From contig CALXUD010000001.1 of the NCBI GenBank assembly GCA_944391585.1, forward strand, positions 6,385 through 70,384: 64,000 bases of DNA, read 5' to 3'. The stretch comes from an uncultured Alphaproteobacteria bacterium (lineage in GTDB: Bacteria > Pseudomonadota > Alphaproteobacteria > CAAHEQ01 > UBA3637). The translations under genes were made by a program, and so were the position numbers. Numbering within the stretch: the first letter of the stretch is position 1; every line of letters starts with the position of its first letter. Below are positions 10,122 through 57,458 of the stretch, piece after piece. The notes under the pieces were generated by a model. The model ran no database searches and was not told the DNA's origin. It was given only the letters and a program-made list of their open reading frames with translations.

Positions 10122-10122
10122 A

Positions 10123-37735: not shown

Positions 37736-38553
37736 CGGCGGATATGCGCGCTCAATTAAAAAAAATTATTCAAACATTGCCTAAAAAACCGCATTTGGCG
37801 GTAATTTTGGTAGGAGATAATCCGGCCAGTGTTTTATACGTCAATCATAAAGTAAAAGCGGCGGAAGAAATAGGGGTTTTTGTTGAAGTACATCAATTTT
37901 CACCCGTAATGACAAATGACACGTTAGTTGAATTTATTCATGATTTGAATAAAGATGCGGATGTAGATGGAATTTTGGTTCAATTACCATTGCCGACACC
38001 ATTAAAATCTGATTTGATCATTCAGGAAATTGATCCCCAAAAAGATATTGATGGATTGCATTATGTTAATTTAGGGAAATTATTTGTCGGTCAACCGGGA
38101 ATTTTACCATGTACGCCGCAAGCTTGTTTAGCTTTAATTAAGTCGGCTTGTCCGGATTTGGAAGGGTTAAATGCAGTTGTTGTTGGACGTTCTAATTTAG
38201 TAGGGCGGCCGTTAGCGCAATTGTTATTGGATGAAAACTGCACAGTTACACAAGCGCATTCAAAAACCAAAAATTTAGCTCAAATAACAGCGCAAGCGGA
38301 TATCTTGGTTTCTGCAACGGGACAAGCTCATTTAATTAAACGTGAATATGTTAAAGAGGGGGCTGTTGTGATTGATGTGGGTATTTCTCGATTGGAGAAT
38401 GGTAAGTTATCCGGAGATGTGGATTTTCAAAACGTGTTGGGAAAAGCTGGCTTTATCACGCCGGTACCGGGCGGAGTCGGTCCAATGACGATTGCAATGA
38501 TTTTCCAGAACATTATTCAAATTGTTCAGAAAAAGGCTTGTTCAAAATCATAA
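37702..38553 (+). CDS. folD: Bifunctional methylenetetrahydrofolate dehydrogenase/methenyl-THF cyclohydrolase
   Basis: 'IDGKKIA', 'VILVGDNPASVLYVNHK', 'VVGRSNLVGRPLAQLL', 'PVPGGVGPMTIAML'. Confidence 0.92.
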   Translation: MDTQIIDGKKIAADMRAQLKKIIQTLPKKPHLAVILVGDNPASVLYVNHKVKAAEEIGVFVEVHQFSPVMTNDTLVEFIHDLNKDADVDGILVQLPLPTPLKSDLIIQEIDPQKDIDGLHYVNLGKLFVGQPGILPCTPQACLALIKSACPDLEGLNAVVVGRSNLVGRPLAQLLLDENCTVTQAHSKTKNLAQITAQADILVSATGQAHLIKREYVKEGAVVIDVGISRLENGKLSGDVDFQNVLGKAGFITPVPGGVGPMTIAMIFQNIIQIVQKKACSKS

Positions 38554-38585
38554 GCCATGATAAAATGAAAAAACAGGAGGCTTTT

Positions 38586-39323
38586 ATGAATAAATTATCT
38601 TCTTTCATCCTGTTAGTTGTTTTGTGTTTCGTTGTTACGAGAGTATCGGCGCAACATGCTACTTTTTCATATATGACATTTCCGAAATTCACAACACAGC
38701 AAGCAACGTCTGCGGTTCAAAAATCTATTCTGGAAGCTACTGAAAGCCTCTCAGTGGAACAGTTATATACCATGGGAGAGGAAGGTTTGGGGGATTCCGG
38801 AACGGCAACAATGGAATCGTCGGTAGAAGGGGTTACCTTGACAATGCCGGTTCCAACGTTTGTAAATGAAGATATCGGTTTAACAACAGATGTTTTAAAA
38901 GAACCGGAAAAATCTGTTGAAGTCATTAAGGAAAATGTGCAGATGCCGACGCAAGAACAAGCGATGAAAATGACGACGGAAGAATTAAACCAAAAAGCAA
39001 AAGCAATTGCCCAATTACAAACAGATGTTACACGAGATGCTTTAGCCGTAGCACTGGCAAATGTCCAAATTTCAGCTGAACAGGAAACTCGTCAAAAGGA
39101 ATTGGAAGAAACAATTGCCCGATCAACAACGTTGCGTGGAGATATTCAAGCGCGTTCCAAAGCGGCGTTAAGTGTTTTGGGAGAGGTCAATCGATTATTG
39201 GGTGTGAGTTCCAAATATTTGGGATTAGAAGCGGCGCATGCTTTGAGTTCAGCTCAATCCAGTTCAGCAGTTGGGGGGCAAACAGCTGAAACGGATACAC
39301 AAAAAACGGAGAACGCTTCATGA
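38586..39323 (+). CDS. Secreted alpha-helical/coiled-coil protein (246 aa), first gene of the T4SS-containing operon
   Basis: AGGAGG RBS. Signal peptide MNKLSSFILLVVLCFVVTRVSA. Q/A/E-rich helical body. Linked to the next gene by an ATGA overlap. Confidence 0.6.
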   Translation: MNKLSSFILLVVLCFVVTRVSAQHATFSYMTFPKFTTQQATSAVQKSILEATESLSVEQLYTMGEEGLGDSGTATMESSVEGVTLTMPVPTFVNEDIGLTTDVLKEPEKSVEVIKENVQMPTQEQAMKMTTEELNQKAKAIAQLQTDVTRDALAVALANVQISAEQETRQKELEETIARSTTLRGDIQARSKAALSVLGEVNRLLGVSSKYLGLEAAHALSSAQSSSAVGGQTAETDTQKTENAS

Positions 39324-40093
39324 CAATAAAAGGAATGAGCTTTTGTTTATTAGGAGGATTGTTTATTCCAATGGTGGCGTTTGCGTGGCCGATTAAAGAT
39401 TTACAAGGGTTTAAGTCTTTAACGATGGAAAGTGCAGCGCAAGAAGGTGTTAAATCTGTCCAAAATCAGTTGAATAATACAACAGATCAATTGTTAAAAA
39501 TAACCGGCGATTTAGGAAATTTGAATTTTTCTCCTCAATCTTTGTTTAGCACCAATAATAATCCATTGGTTGGAGATATAAAGCCGATTAGTATTTCTGT
39601 CCCATCTTTGGGACTGGATGGAGAAGCGGTTAAAAATACATTTGTAACGCAAGGGGTGTTAAATCAGACCACATTTATGCCAGTAGGAGCGGCGGCTCGT
39701 AATTTGACGACAGATCAAAAAGAAGCGATTTTAGCGCAACAGGAAAAGTTGTCTCAAAATTTGGCTGTTCAAGGTGTTGCAAAGGCAAATGTGGATAAGG
39801 CAAGTGCCGTTCAGATTACAGAAAAAGTTGATGCGGCAACAAAAATGATTAACGCGGCAAAAACCGAAAGAGAGGCAACGCAAGCCTATGCGCATACAAC
39901 AGCAGCATTAGCAACAAATTTTAGTTCTGTGGTGGATAAAGCGTCTGCTAATTTAGCAATTGTTTCATCCGTCCGTTTATCCAGTATTACACAAGTCGCT
40001 GAAATTGATCAAACAACAGAAGAGTCAACCCTGGCAGATGAATCTACGGCAGGGCAAGAAACTTCTTCCTCTTCGGAAACAACAGGAGGTTAA
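39320..40093 (+). CDS. Secreted protein (257 aa), T4SS-operon associated
   Basis: Signal peptide MSFCLLGGLFIPMVAFA. N/Q/A/T-rich body, S/T-rich tail. Confidence 0.55.
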   Translation: MTIKGMSFCLLGGLFIPMVAFAWPIKDLQGFKSLTMESAAQEGVKSVQNQLNNTTDQLLKITGDLGNLNFSPQSLFSTNNNPLVGDIKPISISVPSLGLDGEAVKNTFVTQGVLNQTTFMPVGAAARNLTTDQKEAILAQQEKLSQNLAVQGVAKANVDKASAVQITEKVDAATKMINAAKTEREATQAYAHTTAALATNFSSVVDKASANLAIVSSVRLSSITQVAEIDQTTEESTLADESTAGQETSSSSETTGG

Positions 40094-40094
40094 A

Positions 40095-40748
40095 ATGAAA
40101 CAACACTTAATTTTAACACTTATGTTGGTTTTTCCTGTGTCAGTTCAGGCGACAATGAACATCGGTGAAATTTCAACATCAATTGAATCGAATGCAGAGC
40201 AGTTGGTTGAAAAATCTCAAGAAAAACTAGCAGATCAAGCGGTTAATGTTTCATCGGATATTTCAGGCTCCCTTGTTTCTTCTGTCCGTTCAGCCGTTCA
40301 AATCCCGACACTTTCCAGTGTTGTAGATTCTGAAGAAGCGGTGGCATTGGTACCTTCTCCATTAGCATCAGAATTAGCAAAAGAAAATCCGTCTGTCGCT
40401 GACATTCAAACGTGGGTAAACAAACAAACATTACAAGATGAAACAACACCGGAAACATTGGCTGCAACGGTTGAGAATCAAAAAAATCAACTGTTTGTTT
40501 CAGCTTCCAAAGCATATGCGGTGGCGGTTGATAACCAAGTTAAATCCATTCAAGGACAGCAAGATGCGCGAGATGCAGAAAAAAAAGTGTCGGATGAAGA
40601 TGATTTTATCAGCATGAATAAACAAATGGCTTCAATGACAGCTCAAATGTCTCAGAAGTTAAATGCCATTGGTGGTTTATATGCACAGATGATTGAATTA
40701 AATTCAACCAGCGCATTGATTGGCAAAAATACAGAGGTGCAGGAATGA
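40095..40748 (+). CDS. Secreted protein (217 aa), T4SS-operon associated
   Basis: GGAGG RBS then ATG at 40095. Signal peptide MKQHLILTLMLVFPVSVQA. The track ORF 39960..40748 is a longer TTG-type extension. Confidence 0.55.
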   Translation: MKQHLILTLMLVFPVSVQATMNIGEISTSIESNAEQLVEKSQEKLADQAVNVSSDISGSLVSSVRSAVQIPTLSSVVDSEEAVALVPSPLASELAKENPSVADIQTWVNKQTLQDETTPETLAATVENQKNQLFVSASKAYAVAVDNQVKSIQGQQDARDAEKKVSDEDDFISMNKQMASMTAQMSQKLNAIGGLYAQMIELNSTSALIGKNTEVQE

Positions 40749-42763
40749 AACGGATTTTAAAATTAACGGCAGCTTTTTTTGTTTTGTCAATAGCTTTTCA
40801 AGCACAGGCTGTTTTGACCTTTGAAGCAAGCAAAACAACCTCTTTAACGACGCAAGCTAAAAATGTGGGTGATAAAGTGTCCAGTTATGTATATGAAACG
40901 GCGACCAGCGGATTGCAAGAAGGATCTTTATTGCTGGATAATACCATAAAATCCATTACGGATATTCCGGGTGATATTGTGGAACGGGCAACAGCAATTC
41001 CGGGGCAAGTTACAAAACAATTGACAAATATTCCGAATCAGGTTGCCAGTACACTGAATTCATCAATTAATCGCGTGACCAATATGCCTGGGCAAATGGT
41101 TAATCAGGCAACCGGCAGTGTTTCTTCTATGGCAAATCAAGTAACCAATATGCCGGGGAATACCGTTAATCAGATAACAAGCAGTGTAAATAGTTCGGTT
41201 AATCAGGTAACGAGTGCGCCGGGGAATTTTATGTCGCAAACAAATAGTATGATCAGCAGCACGGCAAATCAAACAATGAATATGCCGGGGAATGTTATTA
41301 ATCAAAGTGTTAGTAGCGTAAACAGTTCTTTAACTCAACTGGGAAATGCCCCGGGAAATGCCGTGAATCAAGCGGTTAGTGGTGTGAATAATGCATTTAG
41401 TTCTGCTACGAATTTACCGGGTAGTTTGACCAATTCTTTGAATTCAGGGATTTCCGGTTCGTTGTCTGAAATCAATAGTATGCCGACAACGGCGGTTAAT
41501 AAGTTGATGGATGGAAACATTTCAACAATGAATCCGTTGGAAAATATAGAATCCAGATTAACCTCATCGGGATTAAATATGAAAAATCAGGTAACCAGTT
41601 TGCCGGATCGGATGACATCCAGTTTAAATAATGCGGTTAGCGGTTTTACAAATTTGCCGGATAATTTACAATCCTCTGGCGATCGTCTTATTTCAAATAT
41701 TACGAGCACTCCGGATAACTTTGCGCGTCAAGGAGAAAATATCTTAAATAATATTACGAATACGCCGGATCGGATTACCTCTTCGGGTGAAAGTATGTTG
41801 AACAACATTACAAGTTCTCCGGATCGCTTGGCTTCTCAAGGGGAGAGTATTTTAAATAATGTAACCAGTACGCCGGATCGCTTATTAAGTCAGGGGCAAG
41901 GCACGATTACGAGTTTGCAAAATATGCCGGGCCAAACATTTTCTCAAATTACGGGAATGCCGGATTCTATTATGAATCAGACTGTGGGATCACTTGAAAA
42001 TACATTCAGTATGAATAATTTAATGGGTGGCTCCTTTTCCAATGCTTTTGGCGGATTAAATATGAACAATGTAGACAGTTATCCGACTCAGGCTTTTTCT
42101 TATATCCAAAATAATGCTACATCCAAAGCAAATTCATTGGCATCCAACAGTTTATCAAAATTTAAAAATTTGGGGAAAGAACAAGCTACAGCGGCGGCAG
42201 GAGCGGCAATCGGGGCTGTATGGAACAAAACAGCGGATTTAATAAATGGCTCAGATTCTGAGCCCGCTCAAAGTGCATCGCAAGGGAAAACGGAAACGGG
42301 TTCAGTTGTTGCACAGACATCCCAAGAGGCTGAACAAGCAGTTGCACAGGCACAAGCTGTTGCGGCAGAACAAGAAAAGTTAAACAAACTGAAAGAAGAG
42401 GTGCGACAAAATTTCTTTTTTGACGGGGAACCGACAACAGAAGAAAGAGAAGCGTTGTTAGCTACTCGGTCAGATAATTTTTCGGATATTGTGGCTAAAT
42501 CGGCTACAATGGCAGAAGGTATGCGGGAAAGTATTGTATCGGATGCGGCAACAACAACGGCAACTCCTATCAGTGGCGCCAGCGTTAAAGAAGATATCAA
42601 TATGAATACTGAAATTATGAAAAAATTAGCGCGTCAGTTGGTGGCTGAAATAGCCGTTCAAAATCAACTGTTTGAATTGGAAGTCGCCGGTGTCATGCAA
42701 TCATTGGATGTAAAACGGCTAGAAATGCCAACTTTACAGACGGAAATAGAAACGGGGGCTTAA
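40745..42763 (+). CDS. Secreted Ser/Asn/Thr-rich tandem-repeat protein (672 aa)
   Basis: Signal peptide (LSIAFQAQA). About seven 22-aa repeats 'TNMPGxxVNQxxSSVNSxxNQV' then about seven 18-aa repeats 'TSTPDRLxSQGESILNNI'. C-terminal coiled coil. Confidence 0.65.
   Translation: MKRILKLTAAFFVLSIAFQAQAVLTFEASKTTSLTTQAKNVGDKVSSYVYETATSGLQEGSLLLDNTIKSITDIPGDIVERATAIPGQVTKQLTNIPNQVASTLNSSINRVTNMPGQMVNQATGSVSSMANQVTNMPGNTVNQITSSVNSSVNQVTSAPGNFMSQTNSMISSTANQTMNMPGNVINQSVSSVNSSLTQLGNAPGNAVNQAVSGVNNAFSSATNLPGSLTNSLNSGISGSLSEINSMPTTAVNKLMDGNISTMNPLENIESRLTSSGLNMKNQVTSLPDRMTSSLNNAVSGFTNLPDNLQSSGDRLISNITSTPDNFARQGENILNNITNTPDRITSSGESMLNNITSSPDRLASQGESILNNVTSTPDRLLSQGQGTITSLQNMPGQTFSQITGMPDSIMNQTVGSLENTFSMNNLMGGSFSNAFGGLNMNNVDSYPTQAFSYIQNNATSKANSLASNSLSKFKNLGKEQATAAAGAAIGAVWNKTADLINGSDSEPAQSASQGKTETGSVVAQTSQEAEQAVAQAQAVAAEQEKLNKLKEEVRQNFFFDGEPTTEEREALLATRSDNFSDIVAKSATMAEGMRESIVSDAATTTATPISGASVKEDINMNTEIMKKLARQLVAEIAVQNQLFELEVAGVMQSLDVKRLEMPTLQTEIETGA
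40955..41995 (+). repeat. In-frame tandem coding repeats (periods 66 and 54 nt) inside the 672-aa secreted protein
   Basis: Recurring aatatgccggg.../acgccggatcg... units directly visible in the DNA. Confidence 0.6.
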
Positions 42764-43573
42764 ATGAAAAAGATATTTTTCAAAATAGTCATGGTGGTTG
42801 GATTGTTAGGCTTTTCTTGGAAAGCGGATGCATGTTTATGCGGCCCCAATACGTGTCCGGCTTGTTGGGATCAAATTATTGAAGGCTTTCCGGTTGAAGA
42901 TCCGACTTCATTAGCTCAGCAGGGGGCAAAGTTGGGAAATGATGTGTCTTCGGCTGTTGCATCCGAAGTGCAAGTGCAGGTAAAACAAAAAATCAATAAT
43001 GCAAAATCTTCTGTGGGAACTGATTTATCTTCTTATATGGTGCCGGACACCTCTTTAAATCAAGCATTCAATACGGGAGAAACATTTACGGCAAATTTAT
43101 CCAGTGATTTGTTGCCTCAATCTGCTTCTTTAACACCGGAAAAAGATGAAAATGCACAAATTGCAACGGCTAAAGGTGAGAACAGTATTGATGAGATTAT
43201 GATTCAGGTTGAAAAAAGTCAATTAAGCTCAAATGCGACATTAGCCGGAGAAATTTATGAAACCAATAAGCGGGCTTATATGCGTCAGGAAAATGTTGTG
43301 GATGCATATGCGAAGGTGTTGTTAATGCGGCAGAATTTGGATGAATTGGTGGAACAAATGGATAAAGAGATAGATAAAACGGCTCAACCGGGAGAAGATG
43401 TAAATGCCGCTTTGCGTTCCAATATGGCGGTTAATAGCATGGTTAGTCAGTTGCTTAGCTTATATCAACAAATCATAGCGGCACGGTTGCAATTTGCAGC
43501 ATTCCAAAAACTGGAGCAAGTAGGGACAATTCAACGTCCGGTTATTCAGTCGGCTTTGGTAGAAAGTAAATGA
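42764..43573 (+). CDS. Secreted protein with Cys-rich N-terminal motif (269 aa)
   Basis: Signal peptide, then 'CLCGPNTCPACW' immediately after the cleavage region. Helical C-terminus. Confidence 0.55.
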   Translation: MKKIFFKIVMVVGLLGFSWKADACLCGPNTCPACWDQIIEGFPVEDPTSLAQQGAKLGNDVSSAVASEVQVQVKQKINNAKSSVGTDLSSYMVPDTSLNQAFNTGETFTANLSSDLLPQSASLTPEKDENAQIATAKGENSIDEIMIQVEKSQLSSNATLAGEIYETNKRAYMRQENVVDAYAKVLLMRQNLDELVEQMDKEIDKTAQPGEDVNAALRSNMAVNSMVSQLLSLYQQIIAARLQFAAFQKLEQVGTIQRPVIQSALVESK

Positions 43574-43584
43574 GAGGAGAAAAA

Positions 43585-45747
43585 ATGAAAACGTTATCCA
43601 TTTCATTGATTGCCTTTTTGGCCGGATGTTTATATTGTTCCGCGCCGGAAGCTCAAGTGAGTTATTCAAAAGTGGAATTTGAGGCACCGAATTTGGTTCA
43701 AGTTGCTGAGCAAACGCGCTCAAATGTGACGGTGATGTGGGCAATGCGGGTTCATAATTTGATTTTTCAACTAAAAGAGTATCAGAAAGCGCGTGAACAA
43801 TTACTGGATGCGCAAGAACGATATGAGCTACAGCAACTACGTTATAAATCTATGATGTTATGTAATGTTAACAATTTAAAGCCGTATTTTAAAGATCCTC
43901 AAAGTGCTTGGTTAAAGGTGTTGGATAAATATGATCGGGATGAAAAAAAATTAGGAATTCAAATTAATACAACAGATGCATCATTAAGTGCTTCGGCTGA
44001 ATTGATTGCTAACACGCCGGGGTTAACTCCGTTATTGTCGTCCTCATCAGAGTCAGATGATTTATCTGAAACCTTTTTAATGTGGTCGTTAGGAAATGGG
44101 ATTTTACATGATGTTTATGCCAATCAGGATGATTGGGGAAATCGGGTGGATAAATCTTTCCCATTAACGGTGGATCAGCAATATATTTATGATGAGCAAG
44201 ATTGGTATGGCAAATATAAAAAAATCAATCAGGCAGCTTGTTGTTTAAATGATTGCGGTATTGGCTATAAGGGAGCACCGGATACCCGTGAAAAATTGTC
44301 TGATGGCACAACATATGATTATCATGGTGATTATAAATACCATGAAAACGGAAAAGTAAAAACAGCGCATGATACTTATATGGCCGCGATTAGAGCGGTT
44401 CATCGCAGAGGGTGTTCCAAACGTTTAACAACAGAAATGTTTACCGAGCCTAAACAGCCGCCACGCCCGTTACCGCCGGTTAATGAAACAATAGTGTTTG
44501 ATGCAGACTCTTATTCTCTTCAACGTCCCCCATTTTCAGAACAGCGCATTTATGAAGGTAATCAAATGAATTTAACGCAGAGTGCTTGGCCGGCTCCGTG
44601 GAAAACATTTATTGAATCAGATTTTAAAACCTATAATGCCAATGGGGCAATGCCCAGATATTTTAAATATAAATCAATTGTTCCGATTGATTTAGAAAGT
44701 CGGACGGCAGAACAATTACAGGCATTTTATGATGCTCAAAACAATCGCTTAAATGCATACCAGGTGTTGAAGAAAGAATTGGATGATGCTAAAAAGATTT
44801 TGGATACTTCCAAAGTTAATTACATTGAAGCAATGCAAAATTTAAGTGCCAGCGTTGCAGATGTGAATGCAGCTATTTCTGATGCGAATCAAAGCAGTTC
44901 TCAATTTCAAGTGTCTGTTTTGACATTGCCGGAAAATTTCAAATTGTTAGAGCAATTTGATTTAGATAATATCAGTACAGATTCGGATTTAGAAAAAACA
45001 CTGGATAAAATTTTGGTTCAAAATAAAAAAGTTTATTATCAAGAAACGCCGGAGAGTGATTTAAAAAGATGGCCGGATATGTTTAATGTTTTGCTAAATA
45101 GTACGCCTGCCGGTAATTTGGTTATTGAGCCTGATAGTGAGGGAATTGGGCGTGTTTATTTAAAACAAACACAAACAATGCCGCTACAAGATTTTGATTT
45201 ATTGACAGATGCCCAAGTCAGCAAAATCACGGATAATTTTAAACAAGTGAAAAAAGATTTCATCGCAAAAGCGTTGGGTGAATTGGCCGCAGAATTACGT
45301 CAGGAACAGGCAGCCTCTTCAGAAGTGCAAGCTATTAAACAAGCGGGAGATGCTGAATTAGCCGAAACAACAGATGTAAAATCTCAAAAAAGCCTCTTCC
45401 AACAAAGGTTGGAACAAATGGTTGCTAATTTGAATGGGATAAATACGGACAGTTTTGTTAATTCCGGTTTTACAAATCGGGAAGTATCGGATAGTTCGAT
45501 GTGGCCGGATGTGATGACGGATTCATCTAAAGAAAATTTGGCAACAGTTTTAGAAGCATTGCAAGCAGATGAAAACGCCGAATTGTTCTTCACGAACACA
45601 AATGCACGGCGTGCCAGTGATTTGAAAAAAGAAAATGCGGCTGTTCAAGCGTTAATTGATGAATGGGAATCTGAAATGAAATCAGTCACGGTTGAAGGAA
45701 CGGCTGCCATTGATGCTAATTGTTTAAATTTGGGGATTTATAAATGA
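43585..45747 (+). CDS. Large lipoprotein (~720 aa), T4SS-operon associated
   Basis: GAGGAG RBS. Lipobox MKTLSISLIAFLAGC. No NTP-binding motif. Coiled-coil segments. Its stop overlaps the virB8-like start. Confidence 0.6.
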   Translation: MKTLSISLIAFLAGCLYCSAPEAQVSYSKVEFEAPNLVQVAEQTRSNVTVMWAMRVHNLIFQLKEYQKAREQLLDAQERYELQQLRYKSMMLCNVNNLKPYFKDPQSAWLKVLDKYDRDEKKLGIQINTTDASLSASAELIANTPGLTPLLSSSSESDDLSETFLMWSLGNGILHDVYANQDDWGNRVDKSFPLTVDQQYIYDEQDWYGKYKKINQAACCLNDCGIGYKGAPDTREKLSDGTTYDYHGDYKYHENGKVKTAHDTYMAAIRAVHRRGCSKRLTTEMFTEPKQPPRPLPPVNETIVFDADSYSLQRPPFSEQRIYEGNQMNLTQSAWPAPWKTFIESDFKTYNANGAMPRYFKYKSIVPIDLESRTAEQLQAFYDAQNNRLNAYQVLKKELDDAKKILDTSKVNYIEAMQNLSASVADVNAAISDANQSSSQFQVSVLTLPENFKLLEQFDLDNISTDSDLEKTLDKILVQNKKVYYQETPESDLKRWPDMFNVLLNSTPAGNLVIEPDSEGIGRVYLKQTQTMPLQDFDLLTDAQVSKITDNFKQVKKDFIAKALGELAAELRQEQAASSEVQAIKQAGDAELAETTDVKSQKSLFQQRLEQMVANLNGINTDSFVNSGFTNREVSDSSMWPDVMTDSSKENLATVLEALQADENAELFFTNTNARRASDLKKENAAVQALIDEWESEMKSVTVEGTAAIDANCLNLGIYK

Positions 45748-46400
45748 AATTAAAAAGAACCATTTCGGATTTGCATCAACGTTCTGTGGCAAAAGGGGGA
45801 GCTTTTGTTGCCAAACTATGGATGGGGCTTGCGCTTTTGTCTATGATGTTAAACTTTTTCATTGTTTTAACATTATGGCAAATTTCGCCGAAATTAGAAA
45901 TCATTTCACAAATTGTTTTTCAAGACGCGTTGACTTCTCGTCAAGGTGTGATTGCTGAACCATTTGATGCCAATATGATGGATAAAGATAAAATCAACGA
46001 AATGCTCATTCGGTATTATTTATCTAATCGCTACAGTGTTTTCCCTGATTATGATGAAATGGCGCATCGATGGGGCCCTAACGGAATTTTAGATCGTTTA
46101 TCGACAGATAACGTGCATTATGCTTTTGCACAAGATGCTTATGGACAATTAGAAGAAATCGATAAAAATCCGCAAACCAGCAGTGTCAGTATTCGCAAGA
46201 TGTCACGGCTGGATAATACATGGACAATCGAACTGGAAGTTTTTACGTTTGATCAGCGGACAGGACAGGTATCCAGTCGCGTTTATGATGTTGTTTTGGA
46301 AACAGCCGTTGATCCGGCTTATGCCTTTTTTAACATTGATTTCATTAATCCGTATGGATTACAGATTGTTGATTTCAGACAAACGCAAAAAAAACAATAA
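45744..46400 (+). CDS. VirB8/DotI-like T4SS inner-membrane protein, paralogue 1
   Basis: Cytoplasmic N-terminus, single TM (LWMGLALLSMMLNFFIVLTLW). Periplasmic domain with 'MLIRYYLSNRYSV' (VirB8 'RYV..RE.Y'-like) and C-terminal 'NPYGLQIVDFR' (VirB8 NPxG motif). Confidence 0.65.
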   Translation: MKLKRTISDLHQRSVAKGGAFVAKLWMGLALLSMMLNFFIVLTLWQISPKLEIISQIVFQDALTSRQGVIAEPFDANMMDKDKINEMLIRYYLSNRYSVFPDYDEMAHRWGPNGILDRLSTDNVHYAFAQDAYGQLEEIDKNPQTSSVSIRKMSRLDNTWTIELEVFTFDQRTGQVSSRVYDVVLETAVDPAYAFFNIDFINPYGLQIVDFRQTQKKQ

Positions 46401-46480: not shown

Positions 46481-46657
46481 ATGAAAAAATATCTATTTTT
46501 ATTAGGAATTGCCGGCATTTTTGCATTGGTTGCTTGCGGATCCGTTTATGAAAAAGAAACGGTGGGGATTGGTCCGGATTATTCCGAATTGAAAAAATCA
46601 CCGTGTGCTTGTGTGAAATTGGATAATGTACCGGAATTACCCGAATGGTTTTCCTAA
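46481..46657 (+). CDS. Small VirB7-like lipoprotein (58 aa); not in the supplied ORF track
   Basis: AGAAAGGG RBS. MKKYLFLLGIAGIFALVAC has a lipobox (LVAC). ~40-aa mature peptide. It sits between the two virB8-like genes, as rvhB7 does in Rickettsiales. Confidence 0.5.
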   Translation: MKKYLFLLGIAGIFALVACGSVYEKETVGIGPDYSELKKSPCACVKLDNVPELPEWFS

Positions 46658-46674: not shown

Positions 46675-47361
46675 ATGGTTCAAGAACGCATCGAACACTC
46701 ATCATCTGATTTATCGGAAGAGGCATTAAAAGAACGTCGCTATTTTTGGATGGCGCGCGCTTTTGCTGTTGTGTGTGTGGTGTCGTTTATTACGAACATT
46801 ATTTTAATTGTCGGTCTATTTTCGTTGGTTCCAATTGTGCGCGTGCAGCCATTTTATTTGAATTTACAGGATAAAAATGAACAAGTTATTTCCATTCGTC
46901 GGTCAGATAATTTAAATTTGGATACGGCGTTATTAACTGAGTCATTAATTCGTCAGTATCTGTTGGCGCGCTTAACGATTGGTTCGGATCCCAAAGAGTT
47001 GGAAACAAGATGGGGACTGGATGGTGCTGTGAATTGGACAAGTGAATCTTCCGTTTTCGGGATGTTTGCTGAAACGGCTCAAGCATTGATTGCGCAGGCT
47101 AAAAACGAAGGATTAACACGACGCGTGGACATTTTATCTGTTGTCAAATTACGGGAGGTAGATGCGTCTCGAGATGTGTGGCAGGCGGAATTGAATCTCG
47201 TGGATATGAAACGCGGTTCAACCGAACCATTAACAACGCGTTGGCGTATTGTGATGGAGGTTGAATATCGTCCTAATCGTGAGGGGTTGAAGTGGTCGCA
47301 ACGATTAAAAAATCCGATAGGTTTTACGGTAACGCGGTTTGGTATGCAACAAATAGATTAA
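46675..47361 (+). CDS. VirB8/DotI-like T4SS inner-membrane protein, paralogue 2
   Basis: TM helix (VVCVVSFITNIILIVGLFSLV), 'LIRQYLLARLTIG', C-terminal 'NPIGFTVTRFG' NPxG motif. Confidence 0.65.
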   Translation: MVQERIEHSSSDLSEEALKERRYFWMARAFAVVCVVSFITNIILIVGLFSLVPIVRVQPFYLNLQDKNEQVISIRRSDNLNLDTALLTESLIRQYLLARLTIGSDPKELETRWGLDGAVNWTSESSVFGMFAETAQALIAQAKNEGLTRRVDILSVVKLREVDASRDVWQAELNLVDMKRGSTEPLTTRWRIVMEVEYRPNREGLKWSQRLKNPIGFTVTRFGMQQID

Positions 47362-47439: not shown

Positions 47440-49155
47440 ATGAGTCAAACAAAAATTAAAAAATATGGTTGGGTAAGTGCAATTGCTTTTTGTGCTTTAG
47501 TTGCAATGCCGGTGGTTGCACAACAAGATTTACCGACAAATACGGAAGCCGGTCAATTGGCGGATGCAATTGCTCAGACGGCCGGTGAATACGATGCAAT
47601 GAATTTGAGTTATATTCAGTCGTTTGGTATGCAGCAAAAAGCGTGGAACGATCCGTTGTCTCATTTAGGCGAAGGTCAAACAAAACCGGGGTATTCAAAA
47701 TATGTATGGTCTCCTGATGTTGTGTTGCCGGTGCGTTTGCGCGAAGGGATGATGACATTGATTAACCTGCCAACTTGGGAATTAATTGAAAAGGTTCATA
47801 TTGGATCTCCGGAATCTTTTGGTGGTGAAATTGCCGCGCCGAATTCCTTGTTGGTCTATGCTGATCCGAATTACATTGGTGTTGACTCAAATATGATTAT
47901 CTTTGGTCGCTCCGGTAATCGGTATGTGTTTTATTTACGTAGTGAAACGTATAATACCGATAAAATTACGCACTCTGTTGTTGATGTGTTAACGGGGCCA
48001 AAGTTTACCCCCCAATCGGCAGGAGGAAATTTGCCGGATTTTAATGGCGCCACAGCAACGGCCGCAGGGGCTGGGGCGGGGAATGCTTCCAGCGGCGCAC
48101 CCGGTTGGGCAGGGAAAGGTTCTTCTCTAACGCCGGGAGGTTCTCAAAATCCACAGGTTGGGTTGAATACGGCTTCGACAGGACCGAAAGATTGGCTACA
48201 ATCTATTCCGGTTGACCCGGAAAAATTCCGTTTTGATGTGGAGATGTATTTGCCAAATCCGGCCGACGTAGATATTGCGCCGGAACGGGTATGGCGTGAT
48301 GATATCTTTACTTATATTGATTTAGGGCCGAAAGCGTTGACAATGGTTCAGCGACCGATTGTAAACATGATTGTTCAAGAATCTGAAGTGCCGGTTGGGT
48401 TTAGAACACGGGGCGAATATTCTCGATTAATCGTGGTTGAAGGTGTGGGTGATATGGTGTTGCGTAATGGCCGCAAAATTGTTTGTTTGAAATTGCGGCG
48501 TGATCCGGCTATGGGGTTGGAAAATACGGATTACAGCGGCTCTGAAAAAGCGTTGAACAATTGGAATGCGCCGGCTTTACCGGATTATGAAACAAGTGGT
48601 AATTTATCCAAAGAAGGAAATATAAGCACTTCTCAAGCTAGCGCACAAGGAACGGATATGAATCAATTTAATGCGCAGGCACAAATTAATCAAGATTTAG
48701 CGGATTTAAATGCCCAATTAGGCTTGCAAAGTGGTCGTTTATATTCCAGCTCGGTTTATACACAAAAAATGGCCCCGTTACCGCCGATTCCGGCTTCAGT
48801 AAAACATGCTCCAACGGCATCGGCCGGGATTGTGGATGTGATTGAGCAAGTTTCGTCAAATTCTCGGCGTCAAATCCCGTCTGCTGTGACAGATGAAGAA
48901 ACAATTTCCATTGAATTGGCTTCTAATCCGGAAATTTCGGAATTGGAAAGCGTTTGGGAAAAGGTAATCGCTGATAATCAGGATGTGTTAGCGGGATATG
49001 AGCCGTATTACTCCATTGATGCAACGGCAGATGGGGATGTACGTGAATTATTCCGATTGCGCGTGGGGCCGATGACGGATGTGAAGTCCGCAGATGCTGT
49101 TTGTCAACGGTTAGGGCGGCGCGGATATTCTTGCTCGGTTATTCGGGTGCAATAA
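47440..49155 (+). CDS. VirB9/CagX/DotH-family T4SS outer-membrane core protein, extended to 571 aa with a Gly-rich insert and a C-terminal SPOR domain
   Basis: Signal peptide. N-terminal VirB9 domain ('YVWSPDVVLPVRLREGMMTLINLPTWELIEKVHIGSPESF...NSLLVYADPNYIGVDSNMIIFGRSGNRYVFYLRSE'). C-terminal VirB9 domain ('DDIFTYIDLGPK...RPIVNMIV...GEYSRLIVVEGVGDMVLRNGRKIVCLKLRR'). Terminal 'LFRLRVGPMTDVKSADAVCQRLGRRGYSCSVIRV' is SPOR-like. Confidence 0.75.
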   Translation: MSQTKIKKYGWVSAIAFCALVAMPVVAQQDLPTNTEAGQLADAIAQTAGEYDAMNLSYIQSFGMQQKAWNDPLSHLGEGQTKPGYSKYVWSPDVVLPVRLREGMMTLINLPTWELIEKVHIGSPESFGGEIAAPNSLLVYADPNYIGVDSNMIIFGRSGNRYVFYLRSETYNTDKITHSVVDVLTGPKFTPQSAGGNLPDFNGATATAAGAGAGNASSGAPGWAGKGSSLTPGGSQNPQVGLNTASTGPKDWLQSIPVDPEKFRFDVEMYLPNPADVDIAPERVWRDDIFTYIDLGPKALTMVQRPIVNMIVQESEVPVGFRTRGEYSRLIVVEGVGDMVLRNGRKIVCLKLRRDPAMGLENTDYSGSEKALNNWNAPALPDYETSGNLSKEGNISTSQASAQGTDMNQFNAQAQINQDLADLNAQLGLQSGRLYSSSVYTQKMAPLPPIPASVKHAPTASAGIVDVIEQVSSNSRRQIPSAVTDEETISIELASNPEISELESVWEKVIADNQDVLAGYEPYYSIDATADGDVRELFRLRVGPMTDVKSADAVCQRLGRRGYSCSVIRVQ

Positions 49156-49200
49156 AAAAAGTTTGTATTGAATAGTTTGTTAGAAGATAAGGCAAATAAA

Positions 49201-52200
49201 ATGGCAGAAAATAGAAATTATACCAGTATGTCCGAACAATATGTCAAAAAGAGTAATCGTCGATTACTCATTTTTGGCATTGTGCTTTTTTTGATTTTTG
49301 CATTGGCATTATTTGCCTTATCCGGTCGCAATCAACAAACGGAAGATTTAACGCCGATTGATTATAACACGGACGATTTTGAACGATTAAACAATCCAGA
49401 TGCTTCTTTAACAACGTTTACGCGCGGTAGTGCAACTTTGAAAGTAACACCGGATGTCGTCAATATGGATAATGTCGTATTAGGTTCGAATGTAGAATCA
49501 GTTATCACGTTAACAGCAAACAATGCGCCGATTTTCTTTTTGGGAGCGGAGTTAGCCGAACAACAACAAGATGGGTTTAAATTAGACACCAATTGTGTCG
49601 TAGATAAAGAAATGGCTGTGGGGGAAACATGCAATATCAAAGTATTATGGAATCCGGTTTCTTTATTACAATTGCAAAATAATTTAACGATTACATGGCG
49701 AGAAAATAACCCAACCGTGTTCAGAAATGAAAAAACAGTGGTTCAAATTCGTGCCAATTCAACGGATTCAAAAGATTGTGTGATTTGTGAAAATGTGTCG
49801 GCAGAAGCTAATAAAAAACCGCGGATGGCGGCAGGATTGGATGGTACTTTATATGAAGTTGATGATGATGGATATGTTACGATTGACGGTAAGCGCTATA
49901 AGGTGACGGAAAACGGGTTAATTGTTGATGAAAATGGTAATGTTTTGGGAATTGTTCAACCGGAGCGGTTGCCTTTGGGATTGGATCACAAAGTTTTGGG
50001 AACAATTTCGCAAACGCAGGACGTGATTGATGCCTCCGGCAACAAATTGGGGCGTTTATTGGGCGATGGCACGATTGTGGATCCGAATTTAACGGTCATT
50101 GGTGCGGCTGTACCGGTAGTGTCTGTTATGGATGATAATGGAACAATTGTTGGAAAGTTGTTGGCAGATGGATCTGTGGTTAATGCGGCTAACTCCACGA
50201 TCGGACGGCCGTTGGTAGATGGCTCTGTTATTGATTTACAAGGCAATCATTTAGGATACTTACGCCCATGGGGATTGGTTGTTGATTTTGGTGGATTTGT
50301 TTTGGGGGGCATTACACCAGATGGTGTTGTTGTGAATTCAAAACAACAAAGAGTGGCTGTTGTAAAACCAAATGGATTGGCATTGAATGCATCTAATGAA
50401 TTAGTGGGTGGTGTGGTGCCAACGGGCGTGGCTGTGGGTGCCAGTTGTCAGGCGGTTGGTTCTGTGCAGTTAAATGGACAAGTCAAAGATTCATTTGAAC
50501 AGGTTGTTGGTCGGACATTGCCGGATGGTAGTGTGGTCGATGAACGCGGAGATGAATTGGGCGCTGTTGTAGCTCAAGGATTAGTGATTAACGAAAAAGG
50601 AGTTATTTTAGGGTTTGTTAATTCCGAAGGAAAAGCAGTTGATGCTAAAGGCTCAATGATCGGTTGTGTGAATCCGGATGGTTCCGTGATGGCTGGAAAA
50701 CGCTCGGTTGGTGCAGTGATGGCTAAAGGAACGGTTGTCGGATATGGATGTGAAGTGATTGGTTCTGTTTATCCGAACGGTATTGTGGTAAATGATAAAC
50801 AAGAAGGGGTTGCCCGCGTGTTGGCAGATAAGTATGTTAAAAATGCCAACAACCGAATTGTTGGGGTTGTGATTCCGCGTGGGACGGCAATTGGTGAAGG
50901 GTGTCGTTTGTTGGGATTGATTAATTTAAACGGTCGTGTTGTTTCCACAGAAGGTCAGGATGTTGGCTGTGTGAACATTGAGTTAAATGTATTGGATAAT
51001 GCTGGAAAAGTCATTGGAGCAGTCAATTACAAAGGACAGGTAACAGATGACAATGGAAAAATTATTGGTCGAATTCGGATGGATGGAAAAGTCATTGACA
51101 CCAAAGGGGTTGTCATTGGTTGTGTGAATCCGGACGGTTCGGTTGTGGATTTAAAAGGCGCTCCGTTGGGACAAGTTGTCGGCGTCAGCAATGGAACATC
51201 TCGTCAATCCGGTGTGGTGTTAGATGCAGCCGGCAATCCAACCGGATACACAATCGTCGGAAATCAAGTTTATGACCAAAATGGCAACTTGGTTGGCGAA
51301 TTGCAAGAAAACGGTTGGGTCGTTGATGCTAATGGTCAAATTATCGGCGTGGTCCCGCCTGATGGGGTTATTTATTCTCCAGACGGATTGATTTTAGGTC
51401 GTTATTCTCGTCAAACAGGGGTTGCTGTGGATTTGGAAGGAAATCGTTTCGCGCGAATTTTACCGGATATGACGGCTGTCAGCGGTGAAACATCTGACAT
51501 TATTGGGGCTTTAATTGCAGATAAAACAAGCTTCATGAAGTTGGATGGTTCTTATTTAGGAACAATGCGTATTGACGGTATGATGTTAGATGCCTCCAAT
51601 AATTTAATCGGCGCTATTCGGGCAGACGGAACGGTGGTGGATAAAACAGGTCAAATCATCGGGACGCGCATTTTAACAGGTTCCGTGTTAGGTGTTTTGG
51701 GGGGTGTTATTGGAACAGCTGAGGCGGATGGTTCAGTTATATCCATGGCGAAAACAAAAATCGGCAAAATGTTAGGAAATGGTTTGGCTGTTTCTGAAGA
51801 CGGAAAAGTTATTGGTGCTCTTTTCCCTGAAATTTCAGTTGCCATTGGATCGGATGGAACGATTTTGGGCGGTTTAACAACACAAGGAAAAGTGATTGAT
51901 AAAAATGCACGTGTGATTGGAACAGTTTCGCCGTTTGGTTTTATTTTTGATAGTGCGGGAAAATTAACAGGTCGTTTAGTGCGGGTTGGGGCTTTTGTAG
52001 ATGCTCAAAACCAAACAATCGGCTGGCTTTCCTTTAAAGGAGAGTTAGAAGGAAAAGATCAACGTTCTCGGGCTAAAGTATTGAGCAACGGAGTTGCAAT
52101 TGACAACAATAATTTTGTGATTGGTCAACTTGTGCCGCGGGGTGTTGCGGTAGATGAAAACGGCAATTTTGTCGGCTCTGTTTCCGTGAATGGATTGGTT

Positions 52201-55779: not shown

Positions 55780-56766
55780 ATGGCTTTAGATAATGAAGAA
55801 ACATATAAGGTATTGAATTCTGCTCTACGGCCGCTTTCTTATTGGTATAGTCAAGAAAACATTGAGGAAATTGCGGTAAATAATCCGGGAGGCATTTGGT
55901 TGCGTATGCGGGGAAAACATGCTTATCCGTGGCATTATTTTGAAGATCCGAAATTAACGCGCGAATATTTAAATGATATTTTATATATTATTTCTAATAC
56001 ATATGATTATTCCTTTGATCCGTTGGGAGGGACGCCGGTTGTATATGCAACATTACCGGGAGGTCATCGGTTTACGGGAATCAGTGGTCGGAATGTGATG
56101 TATGATAACAATGATTTAACCGGCGGTGTGGCGATGACACTGCGTGTTTATTCAGAAGACATCGGCATTGGAATGGAAGATTTTAGATTGGCTAAAGGGG
56201 AACGGTTACGGCCATTGAATAAGTTGACCAATGTGGAAGATCCGGATGATCCCTATGAGCGGCTATTGTTGTCTATTAAACGGGGGGATCATATCCTCAT
56301 CAGTGGAGCAACGGCAACGGGTAAAACAACTTTCTTGAACAATATGATTCGTTTATTAGATGAGCATAAGCGCATTTTGACAATTGAAGATACACGCGAA
56401 TTGATTGTGCCACAGAAAAATCGGGTGCATATTGTGATTCCGCGTACAGAATCCACCAACGCATTTGATTATAAACGTGTAATAGACTTGGCTGTTCGGT
56501 TTACTCCGGATTGCATTATTGGTGGAGAAATTTCTACCTCTAATGCCGGTGCTTTATGGGAATTAATGGGGTCCGGACATGATAACTGTTTTGCAACGAT
56601 TCATGCGGCCAGCCCGGATGATGCATATAAAGCATTTGTGAATCGGATTGTGCACTCTTATCCCAATACGGATCGCCAAAAAACATTGCAAGAAATGAAA
56701 GATCTCTTACGTGTAGTGCAAATTAATCGAGACGGCAACATTCGCGCTGTTACGGAAATCACATAA
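55780..56766 (+). CDS. virB11: VirB11-family T4SS ATPase
   Basis: Walker A 'ISGATATGKTTFLN', 'RILTIEDTRELIV' Asp box, 'TSNAGALWELMGSGHDNCFATIHAASP' His box. 328 aa. Confidence 0.85.
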   Translation: MALDNEETYKVLNSALRPLSYWYSQENIEEIAVNNPGGIWLRMRGKHAYPWHYFEDPKLTREYLNDILYIISNTYDYSFDPLGGTPVVYATLPGGHRFTGISGRNVMYDNNDLTGGVAMTLRVYSEDIGIGMEDFRLAKGERLRPLNKLTNVEDPDDPYERLLLSIKRGDHILISGATATGKTTFLNNMIRLLDEHKRILTIEDTRELIVPQKNRVHIVIPRTESTNAFDYKRVIDLAVRFTPDCIIGGEISTSNAGALWELMGSGHDNCFATIHAASPDDAYKAFVNRIVHSYPNTDRQKTLQEMKDLLRVVQINRDGNIRAVTEIT

Positions 56767-57458
56767 TGATTAAAATTGGTATCTTGGGAGGAATGGGGCC
56801 TCAGGCATCAGCACTGCTCTATCAAAAAATTATTTGGCAAGCCGAACATTGTTTCCATGCTCAAAAAAATGCAGATTATCCTTATTTTTGCTTGATAAAT
56901 TTACCTGTCCCTGACTTAATTGAAAATCAAAATGATGAGAAAAAAACAGTTAAAATGGCTTATGAAGCTCTTTATTCTTTAAAAAATGGAGGATACACGC
57001 ACTTTGCAATTGCATGTAATACAATGCATTTATATGCAAAAGAAATAAATCAAACACTTAATTTAAATTTTATCTCTATGGTTGAAGCTGTTGTTAATTT
57101 GTGTGTAAGGGAAGAATATCAAGTTGTTTCCATCTTGGGATCTAAAACAACGTTAAAAACGGGATTATATGAAAAAGCATTATTAGATAAAGGGATTAAG
57201 GTTAATAAGCCTGATCTAGAAAATCAACATAAATTAGCAAAAATTATTTTAAAGTTAATTGCCGGACGATTAAGCAAAAATGATTTAAAAATTTTTAAAA
57301 AAATAGTGAAAGAAGAACAACAAAAAGGAAGTCAAAAAATTATTTTAGGGTGTACAGAATTACCTTTGATTCTACCATTTATTTCAAATAAAAAAGATTT
57401 TATAGATTCCTTAGATGTTTTGGCATATCAAATTAACTCTGTTTTTTATAAAAGATAG
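56766..57458 (+). CDS. Asp/Glu/hydantoin-racemase-family protein (aspartate racemase-like), 1-nt overlap with the virB11 stop
   Basis: 'IGILGGMGPQAS' N-terminal motif and second-domain 'IILGCTELPLI' with catalytic Cys, as in the aspartate racemase family. Confidence 0.7.
   Translation: MIKIGILGGMGPQASALLYQKIIWQAEHCFHAQKNADYPYFCLINLPVPDLIENQNDEKKTVKMAYEALYSLKNGGYTHFAIACNTMHLYAKEINQTLNLNFISMVEAVVNLCVREEYQVVSILGSKTTLKTGLYEKALLDKGIKVNKPDLENQHKLAKIILKLIAGRLSKNDLKIFKKIVKEEQQKGSQKIILGCTELPLILPFISNKKDFIDSLDVLAYQINSVFYKR

Follow-up and report, generated by a model that had tools for sequence, protein, structure and literature searches.

How is a VirB-type (IVA) secretion system held in the cell wall, and how is it put in place there? 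Both matters are poorly understood, and one gene in the window (the whole 64,000-nucleotide stretch of DNA that was analysed) offers a directly testable handle on them. The original prediction was of a VirB9 homologue ending in a SPOR domain, through which a type IV secretion system (T4SS) would be tied to peptidoglycan. We consider it probable that the gene product serves a chromosomal P-type (VirB/Trb-type) T4SS of an uncultured gut alphaproteobacterium as its VirB9 outer-membrane core subunit, and that the SPOR domain of this product binds the glycan backbone of the sacculus.

The gene begins at an ATG with a ribosome-binding site rated as good (AAAGGAG) 7 nt on its 5' side (features are given in Table 1). 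Sequence inspection identified a Sec signal peptide, the sequence of which varies among homologues while its presence is constant, and the product is accordingly predicted to be periplasmic. Pfam CagX (PF03524, VirB9) matches residues 86-350 at 49.2 bits (cut-off 34.2, E=7e-13) in a single stretch that spans profile positions 4-195 of 198, with ~73 additional residues inside, and both the N- and the C-terminal VirB9 domains foreseen in the original prediction are present. With the NCBIfam model for the P-type conjugative transfer protein VirB9 (TIGR02781, an equivalog), the score is 32.4 bits where 217.7 would be required. Judged by these profiles, the 571-aa protein is a VirB9 family member that falls outside the plasmid VirB9 equivalog set. 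In its T4SS cluster the gene occupies the position of a virB9, with virB8 on one side and virB10 on the other. The signal peptide and the two domains are held in common with canonical VirB9/TraO/TrbG proteins (CagX, P-type T4SS). The protein is, however, about twice the canonical length (SPOR-less relatives have 318-362 aa), and what it adds is an expanded Gly-rich linker between the domains, a tether of ~125 aa and the SPOR domain.

Table 1. Features of the virB9-SPOR gene and its surroundings, in window coordinates. Counts of loci refer to the 80 species-level homologue loci fetched from gut and rumen alphaproteobacterial MAGs.
Feature	Position (nt)	Strand	Basis
Six ORFs, overlapping or abutting, for proteins with signal peptides, reaching into the virB8-like gene	38538..45747	+	Coordinates
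Divergent virB8-like paralogue	45744..46400	+	Pfam VirB8, 20 bits, under the cut-off of 23.2
Lipoprotein, 58 aa, lipobox LVAC, motif ELKKSPCAC; candidate VirB7 equivalent	46481..46657	+	ORF
virB8	46675..47361	+	Pfam VirB8, E=5.5e-15; in 77/80 loci
virB9-SPOR gene	47440..49155	+	ORF of 571 codons and a stop; matches to Pfam CagX and to Pfam SPOR
Sec signal peptide, residues 1-27 (ending ...AMPVVA, followed by QQ)	47440..47520	+	Hydrophobic segment, residues 8-29
VirB9 N-terminal domain, residues 86-190	47695..48009	+	First portion of the CagX match
Linker 1, residues 191-251 (61 aa), Gly/Ala/Ser/Pro-rich	48010..48192	+	Separates the VirB9 domains
VirB9 C-terminal domain, residues 252-362	48193..48525	+	Second portion of the CagX match
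Linker 2, residues 363-486, polar variable tether (~125 aa)	48526..48897	+	Between the VirB9 C-terminal domain and SPOR
SPOR-fold domain, residues 487-571 (85 aa)	48898..49152	+	Pfam PF05036 and AF2 fold
SPOR elements: beta1 488-496, alpha1 499-517, beta2 521-526, beta3 538-545, alpha2 548-560, beta4 566-570			
Glu492 codon, at the SPOR glycan-contact Gln site (FtsN Q251 / RlpA Q270)	48913..48915	+	Alignments
Arg539 codon, beta-3, equivalent of FtsN R285 / RlpA R309	49054..49056	+	hhalign against FtsN SPOR
Cys555 (alpha2) and Cys565 (beta4), invariant; putative periplasmic disulfide	49102..49134	+	Homologue alignments
Giant virB10, 2198 aa	49168..55764	+	Pfam TrbI, Bflower_2 (16 stretches), Bflower, DUF3659
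virB11 ATPase	55780..56766	+	Pfam T2SSE; in 71/80 loci

The two VirB9 domains are the best conserved parts of the protein. The mean majority fraction per column of the homologue alignment is 0.93 for the N-terminal domain together with a conserved extension ahead of it (residues 28-85), and conservation is 0.87 for the C-terminal domain, where Cys349 is invariant. The Gly-rich insert of ~60 aa noted in the original prediction corresponds to linker 1, 84% of which is G/A/S/P/T/N/Q. Its length is 50-62 aa in 50 homologues, it is conserved in part (motifs APGW and LTPGG.QNP..GLNTAS.GP), and it has low pLDDT in the full-length AF2 model. The second linker, longer and poorly conserved, was passed over in that prediction. 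It ranges from 75 to 172 aa among homologues, is predicted to be disordered or modelled with low confidence by AF2, and holds one short conserved motif (MAP..IP..V....A..GI, residues 444-466). The full-length AF2 model is poor (mean pLDDT 45, confident in the SPOR part only), so we infer nothing from it about the body of VirB9 or about how the domains lie with respect to one another.

Is the tail a SPOR domain? With Pfam SPOR (PF05036), whose cut-off is 21, the whole protein reaches 23.0 bits and the tail taken by itself 26.7-27.0 bits. In the window protein the match is restricted to profile positions 30-76 of 76, as the domain's first half has diverged too far for the model to align. Across the family, the same model matches 17 of 17 diverse tails, with a best E-value of 1.4e-7. 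The AF2 model of the tail (pLDDT 88) has the beta-alpha-beta-beta-alpha-beta topology of the RNP-like fold. Sequence searches of the PDB were indecisive (nothing significant with the single tail sequence, and CwlC as the top match of the tail profile but weakly, E=0.16), and we therefore used a fold search, which placed the SPOR structures of RlpA and CwlC among its best matches. By HMM and predicted fold, then, the C-terminal tail is a SPOR domain, and the original prediction holds in this respect. Its boundary does not: the domain starts ~10 residues earlier, at nt 48898, with beta-1 (TISIELASN) preceding nt 48928, where the start had been placed.

The window protein's score, at 23 barely above the cut-off of 21, is the one point we found in favour of an artefact, be it an assembly or gene-calling error that fused virB9 with an adjacent SPOR gene, or a fortuitous likeness of low-complexity sequence. 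Chance resemblance is excluded by the 17 matching tails together with the SPOR structures at the top of the fold search. The identical protein occurs on five independent contigs, more than 1,200 full-length homologues exist, the tail is in frame to the stop codon in 80 of 80 species-level loci, and the fold prediction is confident. Against such numbers an artefact is refuted, and we give it practically no weight.

In fold, size and topology the tail resembles the SPOR domains (PF05036) of FtsN, DamX, DedD, RlpA and CwlC. Those of FtsN and DamX are likewise C-terminal, extracytoplasmic and set behind a long disordered linker. The difference lies in the carrier, which is a subunit of a secretion system here and a division protein or wall hydrolase in the known cases (CwlC is a B. 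subtilis amidase). Conservation is 0.76 in the SPOR domain versus 0.38 in the tether. As would be expected if a functional module were attached through a spacer, the SPOR domain is conserved while the tether varies in length.

In all relatives, to identities as low as 39-45%, the SPOR domain comes last, at the very C-terminus, and virB9-SPOR was matched, together with virB10, in 80/80 loci. The fusion marks out an entire lineage of T4SS and is not peculiar to one genome. A homologue search seeded with the distant member L068 stayed inside the family, while a search of 50%-identity representatives and a plasmid search reached beyond it. Three giant multi-stretch matches from the former (P0162, P0180 and P0233) are spurious, as the family HMM fails to match them. 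In existing automated Pfam annotation, 38 of the best 120 homologues carry both domains. The original prediction presented the fusion as not known to be described for VirB9, and we likewise found no description of it in the literature searched, part of which was represented by titles and abstracts. A putative peptidoglycan module in VirB9 is kept across a large gut and rumen alphaproteobacterial clade, and a cryptic version of it occurs on plasmids from cultured Sphingomonadales.

The surroundings of the gene are those of a canonical P-type T4SS in some respects and unusual in others. Genes are ordered virB8-like, lipoprotein, virB8, virB9, virB10, virB11, and the order virB8-virB9-virB10-virB11 behind a small lipoprotein gene is shared with canonical systems. 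The 58-aa lipoprotein is conserved in at least 66 of the 80 loci, in the related locus L081 and on alphaproteobacterial plasmids. It has no match to known VirB7 models; its size, lipobox and position make it a candidate VirB7 equivalent. Agrobacterium VirB9 pairs with VirB7 through Cys, and by analogy the conserved Cys in the C-terminal domain of VirB9-SPOR might pair with this lipoprotein. The virB8-like paralogue has a tblastn match in 75/80 loci, although in ~12 of the more distant loci the match lies inside the virB8b region and may be a cross-match. VirB10, matched in all 80 loci, consists of an N-terminal TM segment, ~1,800 aa of beta-flower repeats and a C-terminal TrbI domain, and is giant in nearly all (that of L068 has 1273 aa). 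The six upstream ORFs that encode signal-peptide proteins probably share an operon with the T4SS genes. None has a Pfam or NCBIfam match; the last encodes a lipobox and is conserved in 51/80 loci. In L081, the order is virB2, virB3, virB4, four further ORFs, virB8, virB9 and virB10. With its 2198-aa VirB10 and six secreted proteins, the T4SS that contains the fusion is unusual, and it belongs to abundant uncultured gut bacteria.

So, does the tail bind glycan? In SPOR domains, the best conserved of the residues that touch the glycan is a beta-1 Gln, which contacts MurNAc/GlcNAc (PMC6895207; bioRxiv 10.1101/2024.05.13.594014), and the substitution Q251E in FtsN lowers both denuded-glycan binding and septal localisation (bioRxiv 10.1101/2024.05.13.594014; PMC6895207). 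Where FtsN has Q251, RlpA Q270 and DamX Q351, VirB9-SPOR has Glu492, invariant in one set of 50 aligned homologues and in another of 17. An hhalign comparison of the family profile with FtsN SPOR aligned the second half only, so the equivalence was set by a family-HMM alignment of 264 SPOR domains, in which Glu492 aligns with Q in 132 canonical ones, and by Pfam coordinates, in which the E or Q of the relatives is SPOR profile position 8. A second contact is missing as well, namely the Phe typical of profile position 12: RlpA F274 at this position stacks on GlcNAc (PMC6895207), and Asn496 stands there in VirB9-SPOR (N/H/D/S/G in the family). The third is kept. Arg539, the basic glycan-facing residue of beta-3, is nearly invariant in the family, and its equivalents contact MurNAc in RlpA and FtsN (PMC6895207). 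A covariation of Glu with an extra beta-3 Arg (R541) was unsupported on inspection of the SPOR alignment.

With the key Gln replaced by Glu, the affinity or specificity of glycan binding by the tail is likely to differ from that of classical SPOR domains. The binding of denuded or septal glycan envisaged in the original prediction is therefore supported in part, with Glu492 and the absent position-12 Phe weighing against it. Against a wall anchor count these two residues and the half-profile Pfam match; for it count the kept Arg539, the conserved SPOR domain on a variable tether, the export signal and the precedents of DotK/Dis1 and PilQ discussed below.

Could the acidic substitution have abolished glycan binding altogether, leaving a re-purposed SPOR fold that makes a protein-protein contact or recognises a different wall feature? 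Possible partners would be the beta-flower region of the giant VirB10, with its ~1,800 aa in the periplasm, or the six upstream secreted proteins, and the gut-clade and L081 systems do have unusual extra periplasmic components. An acidic residue is characteristic of VirB9-linked tails, with Glu in the gut clade versus Asp in ~40 Sphingomonadales-type proteins, and the Sphingomonadales tails are no longer seen by Pfam SPOR. However, one VirB9-SPOR lineage (P0197) retains the canonical Gln (IAVQLGS), Glu occurs naturally at this position in ~20 non-VirB9 SPOR domains, and the beta-3 Arg persists along with the overall exposed sheet. We regard loss of glycan binding as quite improbable.

The Sphingomonadales plasmids bear further on this point. 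Their VirB9 proteins, of ~430 aa (WP_129392748.1 of Sphingosinicella sp. BN140058 p1 and WP_115418090.1 of Erythrobacter aureus YH-07), are 36-37% identical to the gut VirB9-SPOR over residues 45-358 and end in a cryptic version of the tail. These tails are homologous to the gut tail (Y.VDLGSG ... VRLR.GPF ... C...C.V) and match the gut family HMM with E=1e-8 to 1e-6, while Pfam SPOR did not detect them. A KSPCAC-type lipoprotein gene lies upstream, as in the gut locus; both plasmid records include VirD4, and that of Sphingosinicella a MOBQ relaxase. Unlike the gut clade, these systems have a short tether and an ordinary VirB10 of ~530-550 aa. As the tail occurs with a VirB10 of ordinary size, a giant-VirB10 partner is not a general explanation for it.

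If the tail does bind glycan, the most probable course of events is as follows. A disordered tether of ~125 aa and an 85-aa SPOR-fold domain would have been added in evolution behind the two-domain VirB9 body. The protein would be exported to the periplasm, where multiple copies would assemble into the core complex beneath the outer membrane. VirB9 is present in ~14 copies per core complex in pKM101 and Xanthomonas, and since it is multicopy in the core, each machine would present a ring of SPOR modules on tethers that may be long enough for the peptidoglycan layer. Together, the tails would bind the glycan backbone of the sacculus and so hold the outer-membrane core complex on the wall or set its position there.

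Such an architecture fits other outer-membrane complexes anchored to peptidoglycan (DotK/Dis1, PilQ with its AMIN domains, and TsaP with LysM). In the Legionella Dot/Icm core, DotK and Dis1 (Lpg0657) are stoichiometric components with an OmpA-like peptidoglycan-binding domain (PMC9302130). They couple a core complex to the wall, as proposed for VirB9-SPOR, but they do so with an OmpA-like fold on separate auxiliary proteins of a type IVB system. In type IVa pili, the AMIN domains of PilQ bind septal or polar peptidoglycan and bring the machine to nascent poles (PMC5285504, PMC10653833, bioRxiv 10.1101/2020.05.29.123786). PilQ AMIN, with TsaP LysM, resembles VirB9-SPOR as an outer-membrane channel subunit with flexibly connected wall modules; it differs in the AMIN fold, the N-terminal position of the modules and the unrelated machine, and the localisation of PilQ is shown by experiment.

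PilQ also suggests that the tail might serve targeting and not anchorage. Amidase-processed septal peptidoglycan would then recruit VirB9 monomers to the division site, and the machine would be pre-installed at the nascent pole, giving a polar T4SS by analogy with PilQ recruitment and perhaps sparing it a dedicated lytic transglycosylase. Of the known functions of SPOR domains, septal targeting is the primary one (bioRxiv 10.1101/2022.07.01.498525), and AMIN domains achieve it for another outer-membrane channel (PMC5285504, PMC10653833). By Pfam and deposited annotation, moreover, the cassette in the window and the operons of L081, Sphingosinicella and Erythrobacter lack a recognised VirB1/SLT gene. 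Yet the Gln to Glu change is the very one that lowers septal localisation of FtsN SPOR, and the SPOR-less relatives Roseibium and Magnetospirillum have no annotated VirB1 nearby either, so there is no correlation so far between the tail and the absence of VirB1. As VirB1 is unannotated near SPOR-bearing and SPOR-less relatives alike, we set this comparison aside as uninformative. We judge septal targeting to be somewhat unlikely, and attachment to the sacculus remains our preferred reading.

The natural change of Gln to Glu or Asp raises the question of whether binding to denuded glycans survives in SPOR domains whose cleft residue is acidic. A more speculative and rather unlikely idea is that VirB9-linked tails form an acidic SPOR subclass (Glu/Asp) that reads a wall mark different from, or narrower than, denuded glycan, and that this T4SS lineage uses the mark for pre-installation at the septum or new pole without a lytic transglycosylase. 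If true, this would be the T4SS counterpart of AMIN-dependent PilQ placement.

The Cys pair of the VirB9-SPOR domain lies at alpha2/beta4, as opposed to beta1/beta4 for C252-C312 of FtsN, and a pair of the Cys555/Cys565 type is common to non-VirB9 SPOR relatives too.

The virB9-SPOR reading frame is real: a strong ribosome-binding site precedes it, and it encodes a 571-aa protein with an N-terminal signal peptide. Residues 86-350 match Pfam CagX (VirB9) at 49.2 bits (cut-off 34.2), which bears out the original prediction of a VirB9 homologue, while the score against the NCBIfam VirB9 equivalog model is far under its cut-off. Together, these profile results indicate a divergent VirB9-family member, not a standard plasmid VirB9. 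Segment borders and conservation (mean majority fraction) were taken from an alignment of 50 homologues, which agrees with the original placement of the Gly-rich first linker and adds a second, longer tether that the description had lacked.

Positions of features in the window, in the window protein and on two plasmids
Feature	Position	Strand	Details
LptF/LptG-LptD ORF	32199-35441	+	1080 aa; LptF/LptG permease (6-356), LptD_N/LptC-like and LptD barrel (657-1015)
Six co-directional, overlapping or abutting ORFs	38538-45747	+	261, 257, 262, 672, 269, 725 aa
Small lipoprotein	46481-46657	+	58 aa; lipobox LVAC, motif 'ELKKSPCAC' / 'GIGPDYSELKKSPCAC'
virB9-SPOR	47440-49155	+	571 aa
Signal peptide	residues 1-27		conservation 0.45
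Conserved extension	residues 28-85		conservation 0.81
VirB9 N-terminal domain	residues 86-190		conservation 0.93
Gly/Ala/Ser-rich linker	residues 191-251		conservation 0.63; 84% small/polar, 50-62 aa, conserved in part
VirB9 C-terminal domain	residues 252-362		conservation 0.87; Cys349 invariant
Second linker (tether)	residues 363-486		conservation 0.38; length 75-172 aa
C-terminal (SPOR-fold) domain	residues 487-571		conservation 0.76
Giant virB10	49168-55764	+	2198 aa; N-terminal TM, ~1,800 aa beta-flower repeats, TrbI residues 1895-2088
Asp/Glu racemase	56766-57458	+	one-base overlap with virB11 stop codon
Pilin-like protein	57535-58131	+	198 aa; type IV pilin-like N-terminus (GRSMVEMLGVLAIIG), weak TIGR02532 match
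VirB9, Sphingosinicella sp. BN140058 p1 (L084)	8908-10200		cryptic tail
VirB9, Erythrobacter aureus plasmid (L085)	8914-10212		cryptic tail

Against Pfam SPOR (cut-off 21), the C-terminus scores 23.0 bits within the whole protein and 26.7-27.0 bits as an isolated tail, and 17 of 17 diverse family tails match the same model. The last 93 residues, modelled with the family alignment (pLDDT 88, pTM 0.75), have a beta-alpha-beta-beta-alpha-beta topology, and a Foldseek search of the PDB places CwlC (1x60) and two RlpA SPOR entries (6i09, 6i05) at the top (TM 0.66-0.78), the remaining ferredoxin-like folds reaching just 0.3-0.45. The full-length model is poor (pLDDT 45), with the tail its sole confidently folded part. 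Profile match and predicted fold, on which together the proposed C-terminal SPOR could have failed, both identify the tail as a SPOR-fold domain, although it starts ~10 residues earlier than first placed.

More than 1,200 full-length homologues were found, named by NCBI only as 'TrbG/VirB9 family'; Pfam SPOR is already annotated on 38 of the best 120. Relatives occur in 144 species-representative genomes; among the best 80 loci, almost every one bears the label of an uncultured Alphaproteobacteria member of human, ruminant or rabbit gut. In these 80, the tail is in frame up to the stop codon, to 42% identity, and virB9-SPOR (80/80), virB10 (80/80), virB8 (77/80) and virB11 (71/80) are matched. 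Five independent contigs carry an identical virB9-SPOR protein. An artefactual fusion is excluded. Searched alone against 1.8 billion representatives, the tail gave 274 matches; every scanned relative with a single C-terminal domain has CagX, and one cluster of CagX plus tail relatives includes a sequence labelled Rickettsiales. One lineage, P0197 (39% identity, on a contig of 59% GC), keeps the canonical Gln discussed below, and its operon (L081) comprises virB2, virB3, virB4, four ORFs, a lipoprotein, virB8, virB9-SPOR and virB10 with beta-flower repeats.

A tblastn search of 72,556 plasmids with the tail gave zero matches. The nearest plasmid VirB9s (~430 aa), those of Sphingosinicella and Erythrobacter, carry a homologous tail, 'Y.VDLGSG...VRLR.GPF...C...C.V', that matches the family HMM (E ~1e-8 to 1e-6) and in which a Pfam scan did not detect SPOR. 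About 40 proteins are of this type, 32 of them matched by the family HMM. Both plasmid records encode VirD4, and that of Sphingosinicella also a MOBQ relaxase. Remoter plasmid VirB9s (Roseibium, Magnetospirillum, Paracaedimonas; 318-362 aa) end directly after the C-terminal domain, unlike the window protein. The distribution across gut relatives, P0197 and plasmid VirB9s indicates that one lineage of alphaproteobacterial T4SSs has carried the fusion for a long time, and the cultured hosts offer a tractable system for tail function.

VirB9 is exported and builds the outer-membrane core complex together with VirB7 and VirB10 (PMC9302130). A conserved folded module at the end of a polar tether that is poorly conserved and variable in length would be the signature of reaching a target at variable distance, and for a periplasmic SPOR fold the simplest target would be the glycan strands of the sacculus. 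Known core complexes contain ~14 copies, which by analogy would give ~14 tails per machine, so that multivalent attachment could be strong even if each single binding were weak. We consider it fairly likely that the tail anchors or positions the secretion machine on the cell wall.

Glycan sits on the exposed sheet of SPOR domains, where the only highly conserved contact is a beta-1 Gln (RlpA Q270, FtsN Q251, DamX Q351; family HMM position 8), and position 12 is usually Phe (PMC6895207). In the window protein, beta-1 reads T-I-S-I-E-L-A-S-N. We built a family HMM and aligned 264 SPOR domains drawn from 150 representatives; the Glu492 column is Gln in 132 of the 264 ('VQLG', 'LQLG'). In Pfam's own coordinates, profile position 8 falls on the corresponding E of P0179, another relative, and on the Q of P0197. 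Glu492 is invariant across family alignments, and the position is Asp in the Sphingosinicella and Erythrobacter tails; an acidic residue here marks most VirB9-linked tails. Position 12 is Asn or variable, and the beta-3 Arg (FtsN R285) is retained as R539; the numbering of the FtsN sequence used reproduces every residue named in the paper. Cys555 and Cys565, a pair common to non-VirB9 SPOR relatives, are invariant and may form a periplasmic disulfide.

With the Q251E change, FtsN binds denuded glycan less well and localises less to the septum (bioRxiv 10.1101/2024.05.13.594014). For recruitment of the machine to amidase-processed septal wall, leading to polar pre-installation, the AMIN domains of PilQ set an exact precedent (PMC5285504, PMC10653833), but the Glu weakens this idea, and we regard it as rather unlikely. 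Glu at this position also occurs in ~20 non-VirB9 SPOR domains, mostly the first of two in a protein, which makes peptidoglycan binding by the tail plausible, if not to be assumed. A SPOR fold re-purposed without glycan binding, the main alternative, seems improbable.

Our literature search found no paper pairing 'VirB9' with 'SPOR domain', and titles and abstracts on type IV secretion/SPOR domain and VirB9/peptidoglycan-binding gave no hint of such a fusion, so the suggestion that it is undescribed holds as far as these sources, partly titles and abstracts, extend. A search for RF32 Alphaproteobacteria with a T4SS also found nothing. That machines spanning the envelope carry peptidoglycan-binding modules is well known (DotK/Dis1, PilQ-AMIN, TsaP-LysM), and VirB9-SPOR is, to a specialist, a neat rather than startling variant of this principle; its value lies in its testability and unusual binding-site state.

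The cassette runs divergent virB8-like gene, lipoprotein, virB8, virB9-SPOR, virB10, virB11, and the window outside it holds the usual housekeeping genes of a chromosome (DnaK/DnaJ, DnaX, RNase J, Lpt, SurA, KsgA, FolD, Ffh, TrmD, RimM). No virB2-virB6 or virD4 is recognisable within the 64-kb window. The lipoprotein fills the VirB7 position and matched none of the VirB7 models; it is kept in at least 66 of the 80 loci and in L081, and its gene precedes virB8 on Erythrobacter, Microvirga, Roseibium, Magnetospirillum and Sphingosinicella plasmids. The six upstream ORFs, all with N-terminal signal peptides, run straight into the virB8-like gene. They have zero matches in Pfam and NCBIfam, and the last, with an LAGC lipobox, is conserved in 51 of the 80 loci. 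The six proteins probably belong to the T4SS, either as components in the periplasm or outer membrane or as its substrates.

The giant VirB10, perhaps a greater oddity than the SPOR tail, has at least 16 periplasmic beta-flower repeats ahead of TrbI (Pfam Bflower_2 in 16 stretches, Bflower, DUF3659). It is giant in nearly all of the 80 loci (1273 aa in one relative, L068), and repeats of the beta-flower and RHS types occur in the VirB10 of L081 too. The juxtaposition of virB11 and the racemase gene is probably incidental, since the latter occupies this position in 0 of the 80 related loci. Genes resembling the pilin-like one just 3' of the cassette lie near it in 10 of the 80. The single 1080-aa Lpt ORF appears to fuse LPS-transport components of the inner membrane with those of the outer membrane.
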